This document shows positions 2,621-36,202 of a stretch of DNA of 37,317 nt, piece after piece. The notes beneath the pieces were generated by a model. That model searched no databases, was not told the DNA's origin, and saw nothing but the letters and a program-made list of their open reading frames with translations. Positions within the stretch are counted from its first letter, which is position 1; each line of letters begins with the position of its first letter. The position numbers and the translations under genes were made by a program. The DNA lies in IMG/VR virus record IMGVR_UViG_2721755496_000005. One strand, given 5' to 3'. The stretch is from a virus. Taxonomy: Duplodnaviria > Heunggongvirae > Uroviricota > Caudoviricetes.

Positions 2621-2732
2621 AACTGAAGTTGCCCTGAAAATGAAATTTTTTTGCACAACCGCAGAACTTTTCCGCAGGGCATCAGTCTTAATTAATGCCA
2701 CTGCTTTTCTTTGATGTCCCCATTTTGTGGAG

Positions 2733-2776
2733 CCCATCAACCCCGCCATTTCGGTTCAAGGTTGATGGGTTTTTTG
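2733..2776 (+). terminator. Rho-independent terminator-like hairpin near chromosome/prophage junction
   Basis: Perfect 10-bp stem cccatcaacc / ggttgatggg followed by TTTTTT on the + strand. Confidence 0.45.
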
Positions 2777-2855
2777 TTGCCTGAAATTTAAGCTGTTTAA
2801 AATCATGATGTTAGAAACACTGTTTTTTAACGATGGCGACAAAATGGCGGCAGCG

Positions 2856-3074
2856 TCAAAGAGAGAGCGCCACCTGTCCTGATTTCATTGGATGCGGCTG
2901 AACCGGATTTGACTCTTTTGGCGTTGCAATCGAACGAACAAAAGTTTCATGGGTAACAAAAGTATGGCTGCAGTTAATGTTCTGGCACTGGTTGTAACGC
3001 TCTTTGGTCAATGAAGATACCTGAAAACTGCTGCGAGTATGGGCGGCACTTCCACACAGTGGGCAAATCATCAT
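2856..3074 (-). CDS. ogr: Late gene transcriptional activator Ogr (Cys4 zinc finger)
   Basis: CPLC...CQNxNC zinc-finger pattern and about 72-aa length, as in P2 Ogr; start taken at the ATG preceded by GGGGAGA, not the upstream ORF start at 3107. Confidence 0.8.
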   Translation of the reverse strand: MMICPLCGSAAHTRSSFQVSSLTKERYNQCQNINCSHTFVTHETFVRSIATPKESNPVQPHPMKSGQVALSL

Positions 3075-3164
3075 TTTTCGAGTTCTCCCCATTTTTGCTA
3101 AATTCACAATAATGATACCGCATTATTCCATTTTGCAAACTTAAAAGTTCTCCATTGCGAAGAA

Positions 3165-7821: not shown

Positions 7822-8250
7822 CGTTGGCCCCGCATCTCTGAATCGCTTTATACCGCCATTCCAGCACTTCGGTCAGCGGCATAACGTCAGTAACGGATGG
7901 CGGCCAGTGAAAAATGGTGGCGATATCTGCCACCAGATCGTCAACCGTCAGGCTGTCGGTAAACCGGCAAGCACCGACTTCTTCAACAAAAAAGTGACAA
8001 CCTCAACCGACATGGCTGTGAGATCTGCCGGGTCCATCTCTGCGATTTCCTGTGCAGTCAGTGCCGGACTGGAGATGCGGGGGATCACGGTCATCATCGC
8101 GTTCACATCCATATCCATAATGGCCTGCAGGCGTGTGCCGCGCAGCGCACCAGACTGCGGTTTACGCAACACAATTTCGGTAATTTCTGTTTTACCGCGC
8201 ATGATGGGGGTATCCAGTTGAATGGTCTTTTCAGTCTGTTTATCGCTCAT
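7814..8250 (-). CDS. gpE+E' fusion product made by programmed -1 ribosomal frameshift
   Basis: From the heptamer, the -1 frame stays open to a stop at 7814..7816, giving a product of about 145 aa, as for P2 E+E'. Confidence 0.55.
7948..8250 (-). CDS. E: Tail assembly chaperone gpE
   Basis: 100-aa ORF between FII and T; contains an in-frame T-TTT-TTG slippery heptamer near its 3' end. Confidence 0.75.
   Translation of the reverse strand: MSDKQTEKTIQLDTPIMRGKTEITEIVLRKPQSGALRGTRLQAIMDMDVNAMMTVIPRISSPALTAQEIAEMDPADLTAMSVEVVTFLLKKSVLAGLPTA
7987..7993 (-). other. Slippery heptamer T_TTT_TTG (frameshift site of E/E')
   Basis: Plus strand caaaaaa; on the minus strand the codons read ACT TTT TTG in the E frame. 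Confidence 0.6.
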
Positions 8251-27844: not shown

Positions 27845-28094
27845 TCAATCCTCTTTAAACTAAGCTAATAATACCAATCATTATATGGATGAGATCAATA
27901 TAGAACATGCCATCTCCGGCAAAAATCGTACTACATCAGACCAGTGCCCTTCAAATAATATAAATTGAACTTAGATACTTCTGCTTCAACCAGTGTGTTA
28001 AATCCATCGCTTGAACTCAGAACAAAAAGCGGACGATCACTTATCAAAATGGCCGTCCACCTAACGCCTCGTTTCACTCGTTGCCCAAAATAGT

Positions 28095-28122
28095 CCCCCA
28101 TCAGAATGAATCCTCTTGGGGG
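28095..28122 (-). terminator. Possible terminator of the tum-like / dinI-like operon
   Basis: Stem ccccc / ggggg with an 18-nt loop, then a moderately U-rich tract on the minus strand; weak. Confidence 0.3.
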
Positions 28123-28131
28123 CAACGTTTC

Positions 28132-28365
28132 TTAATGCAGCCAGCTGTCGTCTTCCCACACCTTCTGCATAATTTTCATCACTTGCTTCCTTTCTTCGTC
28201 CAGTTGCAGTCCGGTTAGTTCCACACCGTTAGAGCTACCTTTGCGAATGCGAATTACCGTTTTGGGATACAGGGGGCACAGATTGCGGTAAAGCTCGGAT
28301 TCAAGGGCGTCCAGGGTAGACTGGCTAATCTTCTGCTCTTTATCGATCATTATTTCAATGCGCAT
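28132..28365 (-). CDS. DinI-like protein
   Basis: Start at internal ATG (MRIEIMIDK...); about 77 aa; matches the DinI pattern MRIEVTI...LxxELxxR...QxWExxDxW. Confidence 0.75.
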   Translation of the reverse strand: MRIEIMIDKEQKISQSTLDALESELYRNLCPLYPKTVIRIRKGSSNGVELTGLQLDEERKQVMKIMQKVWEDDSWLH

Positions 28366-28375
28366 AAAAGTCACC

Positions 28376-28564
28376 TCAGCTGATGACATCCATTGAGCGG
28401 TTGTATTCGTGGGTTCTGATTTTTGCCATGAGTTCATCTGTTAGTTCAGAAACCCACTGCAGAGCCAGCCCCTTCTCTTCATCACTACACTCACTAGCCG
28501 CTACAAGCTTAAGAAAAAAATCAATGCGCTGGAGCTTCAAAGACTCCAAAAAATAGTCCTGCAT
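28376..28564 (-). CDS. Small Tum-like candidate antirepressor
   Basis: 62-aa ORF directly downstream of a consensus LexA box and upstream of the dinI-like gene, the arrangement of the 186 tum operon; assigned by context only. Confidence 0.4.
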   Translation of the reverse strand: MQDYFLESLKLQRIDFFLKLVAASECSDEEKGLALQWVSELTDELMAKIRTHEYNRSMDVIS

Positions 28565-28605
28565 CTTTCCTCCTATGACACCACAAGAAATACTGTATGT
28601 ATAAC

Positions 28606-28625
28606 CACTGTTTATATTTACAGTA
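28606..28625 (-). promoter_or_regulatory. LexA operator (SOS box) of the tum-like operon
   Basis: cactgtttatatttacagta = CTGT-N8-ACAG with AT-rich spacer, about 45 bp upstream of the Tum-like start. Confidence 0.6.
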
Positions 28626-28717
28626 TATAATAATCTTACTGATGTAAAACGTTTTTTTACGTTCATCAGCCTGATATGCCTGGTATTATTAAGAGCACGA
28701 ATTGTTAATCCGCGTAA

Positions 28718-29074
28718 TTAATACAGGTTCCGCCACTTATCATCTTCCCGCAAACACTGGTTCCGATAGAAGATACGCAAGCCTGCTCCTGACGGAATAC
28801 TGCCGCCGCGAAGGAGTAAATCGACCTCTTTCTCGCTACCATCAAATCCTCTGGACTTCAGCTCATAGACGAGCTGCAGTCGCTGATGGTCTGTAATTCG
28901 CTGTTTGTAGTCTTTACGCCGTTTCGGTTTCACCAGGCGTAACCTTGCAGCCAGTTCCCGGCGCTCTTTTTTGTTCATACTGTGCAGGTAATCGTGCAAC
29001 TCCTTGTCATCCATGCTGGTAATGTCCGTTCTGGGGTCCCCATCAGCTGATTTATCTTTCTCCTGTTGGTTCAA
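28718..29074 (-). CDS. Hypothetical phage protein
   Basis: 118-aa ORF overlapping the gpA stop; basic and charged; no family recognised. Confidence 0.5.
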
Positions 29075-31158
29075 ATTTTCAGCAAGGGGACAGTTATTGC
29101 CACGAGTCCAAGGGGACAGTTATTGCCACGAGTCCAAGGGGCGCAAGCGCCCTGGTCGGCTGCCGCCTCCTGAACATCAACGGCCTTACGAACCATTTTC
29201 CACTTCACGGCATGAGTGCAGATCTTGCCCTCTGCAATAGGTGACCAGATGCCATAAATACGAATGCCGTGATCGCCATAGGCGGTCGGCTCTTCGTTGA
29301 TTTCATAAGCGGTTCTGATGAGGTGATATTTGCGGGGAACCAGTACGCCGCCCTGCTTCATGATGTAGGTGGCAAAACAACCAGCATCAGCAGCAGCCAG
29401 GATGGCATCAAGGCGTGGGTTATCCAGTACCGGCGCACCTGCTTTTTTGTCCCCCTGTTGCCTTGCCGCCTGACCAGCCAGCAATCGCAGTTCACGGTAA
29501 GCCTGACGCCCCGGAATGCCAAAGAAGCGGAATTGCTGAACACGATGCAGAGACGCCCAGGCATTAACGTATTCAGCATTATCACGCAGGGATTTCCCCG
29601 TTTCCTTGCTGATCTCGCCAGCCAGACCACGCCCGTCAATGTTCTTACTGATGTATTTCGCGATGTAGCTTGTTGGCGTTCCTTTGCGCGGGTTAATCAA
29701 CTCAGACTTAAAGCGCGGCCCAGTGTTATTGCCCAGCTCCTCGCGGTCTTCACGGATGGCAAACTTACGCAGTAATGCAGTGATGGCACGGCGGTCTTTT
29801 TTGCGCATGAAACACAACAGGTGCCAGTGAACTGTGCCGTCATGATGCGGCTCAGCCACCCGCACGCCATACCAGCGCAACCCGGCTTTGTGCATCGCCT
29901 TACGAAATGCAGCAAACATGCCGACCAGATAATCGCTGCTTTGTCTTACCGTCGCGTTTGTCCAGGTCGGGTTTGGTCTGCCGTTATTGAGCGTGGAATG
30001 GAAACGTGACGGACAGGTGATGGTGTAGAAAACGGCGCAGTCACCGCGCATTTCCGCGATAAGCTCCAGACCTTTAACACAGGCCATCATCTCATTGCGG
30101 CGATGCGCCGGGTTGCTGCTGCTGGCGTTTACCACATCCTCCATGTCCAGCGTGTCGCCGTCTTCGTTCACCAGTTCATGAGAACGGAAAAACTCCAGCG
30201 ACTTACGGCGCTGCTCACGTTTATGCATCACGGCTTCATAGCTGACATAGGGAGATGCTTTTTTGCTGACCAGGCAGACAGCACGCAACTGCTCTTCCCG
30301 CCATTCGCAACGCATCCTCCATAATTTCCGATACCACCAATCGGCGCACAACATACGCGCCAGCGAACCCGGAATGAGTTCATAGGGCACGGGTTTACGG
30401 CGGTTTCTTTTCCGACGGAGTTGCTCAAACGCAGGAGGGATTACATCCAGACGCAGGGTTTCCGCTGCCACCTTTTCCCATGTCTTGCGGATTTCTTCTG
30501 GCTTAACGTCATCGGTGGCATACAAATCACCACAAGCTGCATCAAGGCACATGCTCATATGCGCGGCAACAAGGGTAGACAGGCGCTTCACCTGATCCTG
30601 ACTCATTTCAGGCAGGATCAGCAGGCCGTCCAGCCCTTCATGGCTTGCCATAAAGCGAAAAGAAGTGGATAGCTGACTCTCGCGTACATGCTCCAGTCGT
30701 TCCAGACATGGCTTAATCGTCTCACGCAAATAGCGGGAATAAGCCTTTGGCCTGCCCAGGCTGCTGAAGTATTCAATACGTTGCATCAGCGGCTTGCTGA
30801 TATGGGAAGGCTGGGCGTTGACGTCCGCCAGAATGACCATATCCGGATTAAAACGCTGCTGCTCATGCGCCAGCTTTGCCCGACTAATGAGCTTATCCTG
30901 CTCGATTTCGCGCTGGACAGGATCACGGGATTCATTAAAGAAATAACGCTCCCAGACCTGATCACTCAGCGCCTCACGGCGCAGCTGTTCCTGCTCGTTA
31001 TCGGCAGCGTACAGAGTGATCAGGTTTGAAAGCGCAGAAACCGGCGCAACTTCCGCCGGGTCCAGATAAGGGTTAATGGCCTTTTTCGGGCTGCTCCATG
31101 AGAATGCTGCTGCGACCTCGTTAAAGCCGCTGCAGTTGTTCATATCAGCATGGCTCAT
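29071..31158 (-). CDS. A: Replication initiation endonuclease gpA (rolling-circle initiator)
   Basis: 695-aa ORF with the VHWHLL and YIAKYISKN motifs recalled as characteristic of P2/186 gpA-type initiators; size close to 186 A. Confidence 0.88.
29085..29136. repeat. Perfect 26-bp tandem direct repeat (2 copies plus 5-nt partial third) within the 3' end of gene A
   Basis: aggggacagttattgccacgagtcca at 29085..29110 and again at 29111..29136, then agggg. Confidence 0.9.
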
Positions 31159-33049: not shown

Positions 33050-33559
33050 TCACAGCAAACCGAATGAAGCACCGAGGCCAGTCACGGTATCAACTGCACT
33101 CGCCATCGCAGGATTAGCCTGTAAACGGGCCTGCAATGAAACAGCGGCCAGCGCCATCAGTCGTGTTACAGAGTTAATGCTGCTGATAGCATCACGACGA
33201 CCTGCACTGGTTTTTACATCGCCAGATACCGCACCTGCAGCAACACGCCCGATCTCTGCGGTTGCACTCATGACATAATGCGGCAGTTTCTCTTTTGCCA
33301 CCTCATTAATCGGTACACATGGCAGGCAGTGAATCTGTGCCAGAAAGCCATCTACCAGCGTTGAATCTTCAGTCAGATCGGTAAGCAACCAGATTTCTGG
33401 TGCGGTTAATAAATGAGGTTGAGCTGGGTTCAGCTTGTTCCGCAGAATCTGTACATTCATGCCTGCACGTTCTGCCAGTCGCACCAGGTTGTGGCGCAGT
33501 GCGAATGCACGACAGGCTTCGTCAAAATGTGGATGTTTGGAAACTTGGTAATCAAACAT
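33050..33559 (-). CDS. cII: CII-like transcriptional activator (186 CII family)
   Basis: Start at internal ATG ([20 protein letters not shown]...), 169 aa; resembles the 186 CII N-terminus as recalled. Confidence 0.65.
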
Positions 33560-33591
33560 AGTCGACACCCCTGATGTATCCCAAAATGGAA

Positions 33592-33813
33592 CTAGTTGAA
33601 TACAACATTGCAATCAGTAAGTGCATCAACGGTAAGAGCAGCAAGGTTGATCATTACCTTTTCTCTTTTCTTGTCTTTCCGAAGGCGATGGCGAGGGATG
33701 CGACCATCAGCCAGCATATCGTTGATGGTGTCGATAGAAAGACCAGTAAGTTCGCTATAACGCTCAATTGTGACGTGTGGCGTATTCAGAGTTATTGAAA
33801 TGTTAGGGGTCAT
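33592..33813 (-). CDS. apl: Apl/Cox-like small DNA-binding protein (excisionase / lytic repressor)
   Basis: 73 aa from ATG 33813 with AGGAG RBS; first gene of the lytic operon, divergent from cI. Confidence 0.6.
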
Positions 33814-33908
33814 GATGCAACATCTCCTATTGGCTTGTGGTGAGCCTGTAGTAATCGTGACAAGTACCCAAACGGGGACAAAATTGATACTAGGATCGCA
33901 AAAGAGAT
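33814..33908. promoter_or_regulatory. Immunity switch region between divergent cI and apl
   Basis: 95-bp intergenic region between divergent repressor and apl genes; promoters and operators not delimited. Confidence 0.45.
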
Positions 33909-34505
33909 ATGTCAACATCAAAGTACCCAAATGAGATCAAAATAAATCCCAATAAAGGTGGTAAGGCTGCGATTGAGCGATTAGTCGAAGCTTATGGCTT
34001 TACGACACGACAGGCTTTAGCTGATCACTTGGAAGTATCAAAAAGCACTCTGGCGAACAGGTATTTGCGGGATACGTTTCCTGCAGACTGGATAATCCAA
34101 TGTGCTCTTGAAACAGGAACCTCACTGAAATGGTTAACCACCGGGCAAGGCCTTAAGCAAAGCTCGCTGACAGCAGCTACAGAAGAGCTTGCCAAGTTTC
34201 GCCTTACCGCAGGCAAAATGATTGAAGATGGTTCATATGTCTTCGATTCATCATTTCTTCCTGCAAATCTTTCATCACCAATTGTTATTCAGGATGGGCT
34301 CGTCACATACATTTGTGATCAAAAATTTTCTGAAGTACTTGATGGGCACTGGTTAATCAACATCGACGGAACCTATTCCATTCGAAAAATCACAAAGCTT
34401 CCAAAAGGTATGATTAAAATTACAAGTACAGAGAATAGCTTTGAATGTGCATTTTCTGATATTGAAGTAGTTGCTTGTATAAGAAGTACAATAGTTTCAA
34501 ATTAA
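33909..34505 (+). CDS. cI: Immunity repressor, 186 CI-like
   Basis: 198 aa; the pattern EAYGF...LA-H...S-LANRY...CALETG-SLKWLTTGQG resembles the 186 CI N-terminal domain as recalled. Confidence 0.7.
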   Translation: MSTSKYPNEIKINPNKGGKAAIERLVEAYGFTTRQALADHLEVSKSTLANRYLRDTFPADWIIQCALETGTSLKWLTTGQGLKQSSLTAATEELAKFRLTAGKMIEDGSYVFDSSFLPANLSSPIVIQDGLVTYICDQKFSEVLDGHWLINIDGTYSIRKITKLPKGMIKITSTENSFECAFSDIEVVACIRSTIVSN

Positions 34506-34525: not shown

Positions 34526-36202
34526 ATGAATTCATTTTCCATCGTTATATTCTTATTAGCATTTCTCGCCCCCATTCTAGCTGTAATATTATTTAAGCAA
34601 AGCAAAAAACATAAAGCGGCTATAGATACCTTGACAGCTAACAACATAGCCCTTTCCAACCAACTGAAAGAAAATCAAGAAGAATTAGCACAGACTGTAC
34701 GAGATCTATCAGAGCTTGAAGGACGAGCTGCACCATTATGGCAATACGTAGAATTGCACAGCGCAGTGATGGAAGCAGAGAATAAGATAAAAAATGCAGA
34801 CTCAATAGCCAGGCAAAAAATAGAAGAAGCCCAAATAAAGGCTGCTAAGACAGTAAACGAAGCAAATTATCAAGCTCAGATAAAAATAAGCAACGCTAAT
34901 AGCGAAGCTATAGCAATTACTAAAGACGCTCGCGATGCACGCCTGAAAGCTAAAGAACGTCTTGATAATGCCAATAGTAAAGCAAATGAGCTGATCTCAA
35001 ATGCTAATGACAATGCAGTGAAAATTATTTCCGATGCAGAAGAAAGAGCAAAAGAGATTGCTGGTTCAGCATATGAAGCTAAAGAGTTTGCAGAAAAATA
35101 TGAAGCAGTTGCCAAATCAATGAAAAATAAAATTGAAGGTTATGGTGATGAATGGATCATCCCTAACCGTAGCGTTCTCGATGAATTGGCAGAAAATTAT
35201 GAGTTTACAGATGCAGGCAAGGAATTACAAAAAGCCAGGGAGTTAACAAAATCATTAATAAAAACTAATAAAGCTGCTTCGTGTGATTATGTTGAACAAA
35301 ACAGGCGTAATACTGCTATCAACTTTGTTTTAGATGCCTTCAATGGAAGAGTTGACAGTATTTTATCAAAAGTCAAACACAACAATTTTGGAAAACTTTC
35401 CCAAGAGATAAAAGATGCGTTTCAACTTGTAAATTACAATGGTTCTGCCTTTAGGTCCGCAAAAATAAGTGACATCTATCTTCAAGCTCGACTCAACGAG
35501 CTAAAATGGGGTGTTGCAGTTAATGAAATTATGCTCGAAGAAAAAGAAGAGCAAAGAAGGATTAAAGAACAACTTCGTGAAGAGGAAAGAGCTCGTAGGG
35601 AGTATGAAAAAGCGATAAAAGAAGCTGAAAAAGAAGAGAAAGCTATTCAGCAAGCTATAAATAAAGCAACAAAAGAGCTTATGCTTGCAAATGAAGAACA
35701 ACGCTTAGCTTTAGAGCAAAAAATAGCTGAACTACAGTTAAAATATGAAGAAGCTGAAGCTAAAAACCAACGAGCTATTTCTATGGCTCAACAAACTAGA
35801 TCAGGCCACGTTTATATAATTAGTAATATTGGCTCATTTGGCGAAGATGTATATAAAATTGGAATGACACGCCGCCTTGAACCACTTGATCGTGTTCGTG
35901 AACTCGGTGATGCTAGTGTTCCTTTTTCGTTCGATGTTCATGCGATGATTTATAGTGATGATGCACCATCATTAGAAAATCATCTGCATAAAGTCTTCAA
36001 CGAAAAACAGGTCAATAAAATTAACTCACGAAAAGAGTTTTTCAACGTAAATATTAAAGAAATTAAGTCTGTTATTGAAGATATGAACATCAACGCACAA
36101 TGGACAATGTTTGCGGAAGCGAAAGAATATAGAGAGTCACTGGCGATTGAGCAAGAGCGCAAAGCAGCAACTTCCGCCAACGATGAACTGCATGTTGCTT
36201 AG
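34526..36202 (+). CDS. Cargo protein: N-terminal transmembrane helix, long coiled coil, C-terminal GIY-YIG-like (T5orf172/MUG113-type) domain
   Basis: 558 aa in AT-rich DNA, 21 bp after cI with AAAGGA RBS; hydrophobic N-terminus, about 380 aa of heptad-like Lys/Glu/Ala-rich sequence, then GHVYIISN...YKIGMTRR...R-x3-E-L...N. Confidence 0.6.
   Translation: MNSFSIVIFLLAFLAPILAVILFKQSKKHKAAIDTLTANNIALSNQLKENQEELAQTVRDLSELEGRAAPLWQYVELHSAVMEAENKIKNADSIARQKIEEAQIKAAKTVNEANYQAQIKISNANSEAIAITKDARDARLKAKERLDNANSKANELISNANDNAVKIISDAEERAKEIAGSAYEAKEFAEKYEAVAKSMKNKIEGYGDEWIIPNRSVLDELAENYEFTDAGKELQKARELTKSLIKTNKAASCDYVEQNRRNTAINFVLDAFNGRVDSILSKVKHNNFGKLSQEIKDAFQLVNYNGSAFRSAKISDIYLQARLNELKWGVAVNEIMLEEKEEQRRIKEQLREEERARREYEKAIKEAEKEEKAIQQAINKATKELMLANEEQRLALEQKIAELQLKYEEAEAKNQRAISMAQQTRSGHVYIISNIGSFGEDVYKIGMTRRLEPLDRVRELGDASVPFSFDVHAMIYSDDAPSLENHLHKVFNEKQVNKINSRKEFFNVNIKEIKSVIEDMNINAQWTMFAEAKEYRESLAIEQERKAATSANDELHVA

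Follow-up and report, generated by a model that had tools for sequence, protein, structure and literature searches.

Does a short operon downstream of replication gene A allow this P2-like prophage to respond to DNA damage and, if so, by what route? The operon lies in the window, the whole 37,317-nucleotide stretch of viral DNA analysed here (IMG/VR record IMGVR_UViG_2721755496_000005; Caudoviricetes). P2 is described as non-inducible (PMC5322425). Phage 186 encodes Tum, a LexA-controlled factor that is released by LexA cleavage and reversibly sequesters CI (PMC7708051), and induction of SopEPhi is attributed to SOS-driven expression of Tum (PMC9827884). A preliminary description of the window had placed a LexA operator upstream of a small open reading frame (ORF) and a DinI-like gene, and had likened the arrangement to the tum operon of 186. 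We conclude, with a probability of about 85%, that the locus serves a P2-like prophage of the Fels-2/186 type as its SOS induction module, here with tum split into tumA and tumB and with TumA predicted from homology and by analogy to inactivate CI (Table 1). Such a module is already known, as a split Tum under LexA control in PSP3, Fels-2 and SopEPhi, and represents the textbook alternative to repressor cleavage of the lambda type.

Table 1. Coordinates of the SOS module, the repressor switch and neighbouring features in the window; further copies of the structured element are numbered by their own loci.
Feature	Position	Strand	Evidence or remark
SOS promoter (counterpart of p95 in 186), −35 hexamer TTTACA	28643..28648	minus	read from sequence
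−10 hexamer TACTGT	28620..28625	minus	first six bases of the LexA operator
LexA operator TACTGTAAATATAAACAGTG	28606..28625	minus	17/20 versus consensus
tumA RBS AGGAGG	28569..28574	minus	
tumA, 62 aa, presumed anti-CI antirepressor	28376..28564 (ATG at 28564)	minus	profile homology to 186 Tum N terminus
tumB RBS GAGGTGA	28371..28377	minus	overlaps tumA stop codon
tumB, 77-aa DinI-family protein	28132..28365	minus	Pfam DinI PF06183, E=2.5e-22
Conserved hairpin plus box, ..CAACGAG-N-..CGAGGCGTTA, 68 nt, degenerate variant	28062..28129	minus	covariance model, 54.9 bits (own copy is part of the seed alignment)
Further copies of the element	L001 8345..8412; L003 7557..7623 and 7961..8028; L145 1762..1828		
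Candidate intrinsic terminator of the SOS operon, stem GGUGGACGG..CGUCCGCU plus U-run	28021..28062	minus	−19.4 kcal/mol, z=−3.4
cI, 186-type immunity repressor, 198 aa, presumed TumA target	33909..34505	plus	Pfam Phage_CI_repr 8e-32 and Phage_CI_C 4e-27
apl/cox-like gene	about 33592..33813	minus	phrog_575 (Cox-like excisionase/repressor) 3.6e-31
cII	about 33050..33559	minus	phrog_101 (CII-like) 1.8e-57; Pfam Phage_CP76 1.2e-41
apl/cox-like plus cII switch region	33050..33930	minus	
Truncated A, 695 aa	29071..31158		Phage_GPA domain whole
Orphan ORF from gene A, 118 aa	28718..29074		
PIN_12-domain protein, 353 aa	24738..25799	minus	
TPR plus LA2681-type HEPN protein, 525 aa	26267..27844	minus	

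A LexA operator within an SOS promoter

The operator, with its AT-rich spacer, lies exactly where the preliminary description had put it, and the small ORF and the DinI-like gene follow it on the minus strand in the order described. Its upstream end coincides with the −10 element of a sigma-70-type promoter in which a 17-nt spacer separates the two hexamers. We assigned this promoter by analogy with the annotated p95 of 186, which has the same design (−35 TTCACA, 18-nt spacer and −10 TACTGT inside the LexA site), and it is kept in 813R9, Fels-2 and 500465-1. A generic promoter scan of the window did not call it, because the −10 hexamer matches the consensus at only three of six positions. The leader between the LexA box and the tumA start codon is 41 nt long and includes AGGAGG.

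We considered whether the LexA-like sequence might be an AT-rich palindrome that arose by chance and regulates nothing. The bare motif CTGT-N8-ACAG, whose sole exact match in the window is at 28608..28623, would allow this reading: 0.44 occurrences per window are expected by chance and 34 of 100 shuffles contained at least one, so that the bare motif is weak evidence. The full 20-mer argues otherwise. TACTGTAAATATAAACAGTG and TACTGTATATATATACAGTA are identical at 17 of 20 positions, with the E. coli consensus TACTG(TA)5CAGTA as the reference, and none of 100 shuffles contained a site with three or fewer mismatches. The box, moreover, overlaps the −10 hexamer exactly as in 186 p95, and a TACTGT-N8-ACAGT box precedes every TumA-like ORF in 14 of 14 Peduoviridae loci from about ten genera, 2 to 41 nt before the earliest start codon in the TumA-like frame. 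The non-coding sequence around the box diverges among these 14 loci, but the box itself is kept. Since it is present in all of them, we do not regard it as a product of chance, a reading to which we give practically no credence.

A TACAGT motif also lies approximately 10 nt downstream of the LexA box (about 28586..28600, minus strand) and is kept in all Fels-2-type loci. We rejected this region (..CAGTGGTTATACATACAGTA) as a second LexA box: its left half is GTG, not CTG, and GTG-N10-CAG is a poor match.

The small ORF encodes a Tum-like protein

The small ORF is clearly a real coding gene under purifying selection. Its pN/pS against homologues was 0.13-0.14 at a pS of about 0.55-0.58, similar to that of tumB, and a pN/pS of about 0.13 rules out the non-coding alternative that the preliminary description had named. 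Upstream ATGs would lengthen the tumA and tumB ORFs to 96 and 101 aa, whereas the conserved starts give 62 and 77 aa.

As judged by profile comparison, TumA is remotely homologous to Tum of 186 over the N-terminal half of the latter, which bears out the comparison proposed at the outset. BLASTP of TumA against 186 Tum returned no alignment, identity to the Tum N terminus being only 18-20%, and the homology is visible with profiles only. TumA matched phrog_698 at 3.6e-38, phrog_8554 at 2.4e-8 and phrog_1993 at 2e-3, and residues 1-70 of 186 Tum matched the same three PHROGs (2e-23, 3e-12 and 6.7e-6, the last of these values for phrog_698). When the TumA subfamily was aligned with the Tum N-terminal subfamily, hhalign gave a probability of 96.5% (E=8.4e-10, 50 columns), and ten members of the TumA family could be aligned without gaps over ~45 core residues, among which an Arg, a Cys and an Ala are nearly invariant. 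Bridging sequences were found by tblastn: ESSI-2-type phages of Cronobacter and Escherichia are 41-49% identical to TumA, the TumA and Tum N-terminus queries match one genomic spot in Yersinia phages, and ENT90 bridges the two as well. TumA is acidic (pI 4.6) and was modelled by AlphaFold2 from the single sequence as a two-helix hairpin (pLDDT 91.6), for which a Foldseek search of the PDB returned only generic helical hairpins and none at E<=0.001.

A different reading of the operon is that the DinI-like SOS modulator is LexA-controlled cargo that benefits the host, that the small ORF is not an anti-CI factor and that induction, if any, takes another route. TumA has no match in Pfam, NCBIfam or PDB sequences and is labelled hypothetical protein in RefSeq, which together with the empty BLASTP comparison would suit such a reading, as would the statement, in PMC3121763, that deletions of the Gifsy dinI homologues left induction unaffected. 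It must, however, be set against a profile homology to Tum that is significant in both directions and against the purifying selection on the small ORF. The PSP3 record and PMC3121763 give UV induction to the upstream half, and CI has no visible self-cleavage domain. In addition, five of the 14 loci (ESSI-2, ESSI2_ev015, ENT90 and two Yersinia phages) pair the LexA box with TumA and have no DinI-like ORF just downstream; since TumA stands alone in these phages, we regard TumA and the LexA box as the core of the module and the DinI part as an accessory. We therefore consider the cargo reading very unlikely and retain that of a Tum-type antirepressor.

The DinI-like gene is a separate cistron

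TumB is a phage paralogue of DinI and not the host protein. It matches PF06183 with 79.4 bits (cutoff 24.2) over profile positions 1-63 of 63 and shares 41% identity with residues 71-145 of 186 Tum and 78% with TumB of PSP3. It aligns over its full length with E. coli DinI (PDB 1GHH) at 8e-6 and keeps the acidic WEDDSW motif of the C-terminal helix, but scores 41 versus the 111-bit cutoff of the NCBIfam DinI equivalog. The gene is under purifying selection (pN/pS 0.11-0.15). A DinI domain fused to the antirepressor in one polypeptide is absent from the window, where a stop codon, a 10-nt spacer and a ribosome-binding site of its own set tumB apart as a separate cistron in another frame than tumA.

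The likeness to 186 that the preliminary description had drawn therefore stands for the LexA-controlled Tum-type module and not for its layout. In both phages the SOS operon directly follows gene A, both halves of Tum have homologues here, and the CI/Apl/CII switches are alike. In 186, however, Tum is a single 146-aa fusion with a DinI-like C-terminal half, and internal starts yield truncated DinI-like products that, according to the record, 'modulate SOS induction'. The 186 operon also runs on through the partial terminator t95a into orf97, its second gene, to which the 186 record gives no DinI-like annotation, whereas the window has other cargo and two terminator-like hairpins in between.

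The layout of the window is instead the split one of PSP3, Fels-2 and SopEPhi: tumA and then a separate tumB, downstream of gene A (the A-derived ORF ends at 28718). Lemire et al. (PMC3121763) describe tum as split in two in Fels-2 and PSP3 and assign the antirepressor activity of PSP3 to the upstream gene. The PSP3 record annotates a 60-aa tumA as 'similar to 5' end 186 tum; UV induction of prophage' and a 77-aa tumB as 'similar to dinI and 3' end of 186 tum', and the LexA box of PSP3 overlaps the −10 hexamer, as in the window. The PSP3 genes differ in sharing one frame, with a stop codon and one sense codon between them, as opposed to the different frames, 10-nt spacer and separate ribosome-binding site seen here, and PSP3 TumA is only about 12% identical to that of the window, with which it aligns only within the family alignment.

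Fels-2 (STM2728 and STM2726.1) and SopEPhi (orf10 and orf11) share with the window both the promoter and the arrangement of two cistrons downstream of gene A, and their DinI-like gene begins about 10 nt after the TumA gene, as in the window. Fels-2 has an identical LexA box and SopEPhi one with a single base changed; TumA is identical to Fels-2 STM2728 at 61 of 62 residues (98%) and is 88.7% identical to SopEPhi orf10. The whole Fels-2 genome is collinear with the window, although Fels-2 carries other cargo after tumB and does not have the hairpin-plus-box element described below. Both phages are tied to SOS/Tum-dependent induction in the literature (PMC3121763, PMC9827884). Their host is Salmonella, whereas that of the window prophage is probably E. 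coli, the best match being strain H2. A more distant parallel is offered by the dinI-gfoA/gftA operons of Gifsy-1/2/3, which combine a LexA-repressed DinI homologue with a small antirepressor that acts non-covalently on a non-cleavable repressor (PMC3121763); these belong to lambdoid phages and have the reverse gene order, with dinI first, and their likeness to the window is by description.

The repressor switch and a predicted route of induction

All three genes of the 186-type switch that had been claimed for this element, cI, apl and cII, were recovered by Pfam or PHROG matches, and the window also encodes Fil. CI is 33% identical to 186 CI and 40% identical to Fels-2 CI. No peptidase S24 domain was found in CI among Pfam matches at E<=0.01. 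SOS induction through an antirepressor is best supported because a CI that has no peptidase domain is present together with Apl and CII. The further claim, that a P2-order late region is combined with 186-type control, is accurate as to both parts but describes nothing special, as 186, PSP3 and Fels-2 are all built in this way.

Taken together, these features suggest the following sequence of events. In an undamaged cell, host LexA would be bound at the operator and, because the operator contains the −10 hexamer, should block the promoter, as the sequence architecture implies. After DNA damage, RecA-stimulated cleavage of LexA would free the promoter and give rise to a bicistronic tumA-tumB mRNA, which probably ends at the hairpin and U-run about 70-110 nt past tumB. 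By inference from 186, PSP3, Fels-2 and SopEPhi, TumA would then bind the 186-type CI non-covalently and stop it from binding its operators; an antirepressor would be needed here because CI shows no autocleavage (peptidase S24) domain. Inactivation of CI would, as in the homologous phages, switch on the early lytic promoter and with it apl, cII and the replication genes. TumB probably modulates RecA filaments, and thereby the size or duration of the SOS signal, and would not be required for derepression.

Pairing of TumA with CI

An identical TumA can accompany quite different repressors. Many deposited phages encode a TumA that is 100% identical to that of the window and a CI that is only 42-50% identical overall. 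Within this group the N-domain of CI is 73-100% identical and the C-domain 27-35%, except in 813R9, where it is 94%; in the divergent CI proteins the N-domain ranges from 73 to 83%. Across 15 phages, TumA identity correlated with CI N-domain identity (Spearman 0.84, Mantel p=2e-4), as compared with 0.24 (p=0.07) for the C-domain. A TumA that contacts the DNA-binding domain of CI, and so might act across immunity types, would fit this correlation, which we regard as only a lead: it is suggestive and no stronger because the A-tum module has been shared recently and the N-domain evolves more slowly. As identical TumA proteins accompany differing CI proteins, any cognate specificity between the two is putative. 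The occurrence of one TumA with several CI types suggests that heteroimmune P2-like prophages may cross-induce one another.

A structured element follows tumB

The only unexpected item of the locus is a structured element directly after tumB. Similarity between the window and most of its relatives seemed to end at the tumB stop codon, but alignment of the next 80 nt showed a conserved framework, consisting of a long hairpin of about 15 bp, AAC-G-TTGC...GCAA-G-GTT, and, after it, a box that hardly varies, GAACAACGAG-N4/5-GCGAGGCGTTAG. A 15-mer taken from this box was found in at least 120 viral contigs, where the element mostly lies directly after a DinI-like ORF, and the element was present in all of 100 scanned viral loci, as a single copy in 99 of them. 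Among 33 distinct variants, 95.5% of cells were paired, as against 84.8% after shuffling and 29-50% in slid controls, and compensatory changes were seen at 10 of the 15 hairpin pairs; the observed values were reached in none of 500 shuffles. On the tumAB sense strand there were 37 G-U versus 7 A-C cells, an excess that favours an RNA made in the tumAB direction.

A covariance model located one copy in 186, after orf97, just before t95b and inside the SOS transcript, two copies in PSP3, flanking gp37, and one in a P2 genome, downstream of gene A; it found none in the Fels-2, ESSI-2, Yersinia and ENT90 loci. In P2, 186, PSP3 and at least 100 viral contigs it lies on that side of the gpA-gpQ defence hotspot (PMC9122126) which faces gene A. 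Rfam held no family that matched the element, although the threshold was as lenient as E<=1. Two papers on the gpA-gpQ hotspot (PMC9122126 among them) were searched for the terms hairpin and stem-loop, and neither mentioned one. We tentatively suggest, on the basis of covariation and conservation in sequence alignments, that the P2 family may have in this element a cis-acting RNA not described before. Such an RNA could set the stability of the tum mRNA, for example by RNase III retroregulation, or could govern read-through from the SOS or an early promoter into defence cargo.

Several other identities were considered for the hairpin and rejected. In relatives it is not a canonical terminator, as they have no U-run. 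An integron attC-like site would have an inverse core RYYYAAC that pairs with a core GTTRRRY at the foot of a variable hairpin; GTTGAAC on the 3' side agrees with GTTRRRY, but the 5' AAC is not preceded by RYYY, pairing is confined to AAC/GTT, and two copies were seen in just one of the 100 scanned viral loci, plus PSP3. We also rejected the hairpin as part of cos; a P2 cos 19-mer used as a query had no match in the window. The candidate intrinsic terminator of the SOS operon, which was also found by a simple terminator scan, directly follows the element, and t95b of 186 occupies the same place relative to the conserved element.

Gene A and the outcome of induction

Replication gene A is frameshifted in the window by a 26-bp tandem duplication (2.3 copies, 29083..29141), which may impair phage production. 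This raises the possibility that the module is intact in a replication-defective prophage, so that SOS derepression would occur with no release of phage, leaving the operon to act in trans alone, on other P2-like prophages for instance, or simply to be toxic after damage. The frameshift leaves a shortened A and an orphan ORF, the lost tail corresponds to a conserved region (186 A residues 604-668), and the 26-bp sequence is single-copy and A intact, at about 804-809 aa, in 813R9, Fels-2 and the near-identical prophage of E. coli H2 (804 aa). On the other hand, the truncated protein retains the full Phage_GPA domain, SopEPhi A is annotated as truncated too and yet particles are reported to be released (PMC9827884), and the duplication could be an assembly artefact or very recent. 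We consider a defect of this kind rather unlikely, and it would touch the outcome of induction and not the mechanism of the module. With respect to the antirepressor module itself, derepression is likely, and productive induction is less certain.

Distribution of the locus

The 621-bp locus was found in 1124 of 5426 complete E. coli genomes, about a fifth, almost always at 95-99% identity and in up to three copies in some genomes. The copy in E. coli H2 is 99.8% identical to that of the window and is followed by the same cargo. The locus also occurs in phage records from Klebsiella, Salmonella and Yersinia. No P2 record was among the matches listed by tblastn with TumA and the Tum N terminus, and CTGT-N8-ACAG was absent between gene A and the hairpin element in the P2 genome checked. 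In the E. coli genomes the locus is annotated as 'DinI-like family protein | hypothetical protein | replication endonuclease'. Our assignment has practical value for annotation, as it would give a name to a widespread antirepressor half, present also in numerous prophages of Klebsiella and Salmonella, that has no Pfam or NCBIfam model and appears in RefSeq as 'hypothetical protein'. Antibiotics that induce the SOS response should derepress all such prophages.

Cargo and surroundings of the prophage

Between portal gene Q and tumB, in the known P2 gpA-gpQ hotspot, lies AT-rich cargo, whose HEPN and PIN genes share the strand of the SOS operon. As a weak TPR hit was all that PADLOC returned, HEPN and PIN may form a defence pair that has yet to be characterised. 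We also considered whether the SOS transcript might read through into this cargo, by analogy with 186 orf97, which is unlikely, as two or three terminator-like hairpins intervene. A second cargo site of the prophage, between cI and int, holds a 558-aa ORF (34526..36202, plus strand) that matches a PD-Lambda-1 defence protein (PADLOC 4e-120) and, in Pfam, DUF4041 and T5orf172/MUG113. At the other end of the window, positions 2700..2778 on the plus strand hold the gene of the host sRNA RybB (Rfam RF00110, 105 bits), about 80 nt from the ogr-like end of the prophage (2856..3107), which suggests that the prophage is integrated beside rybB.
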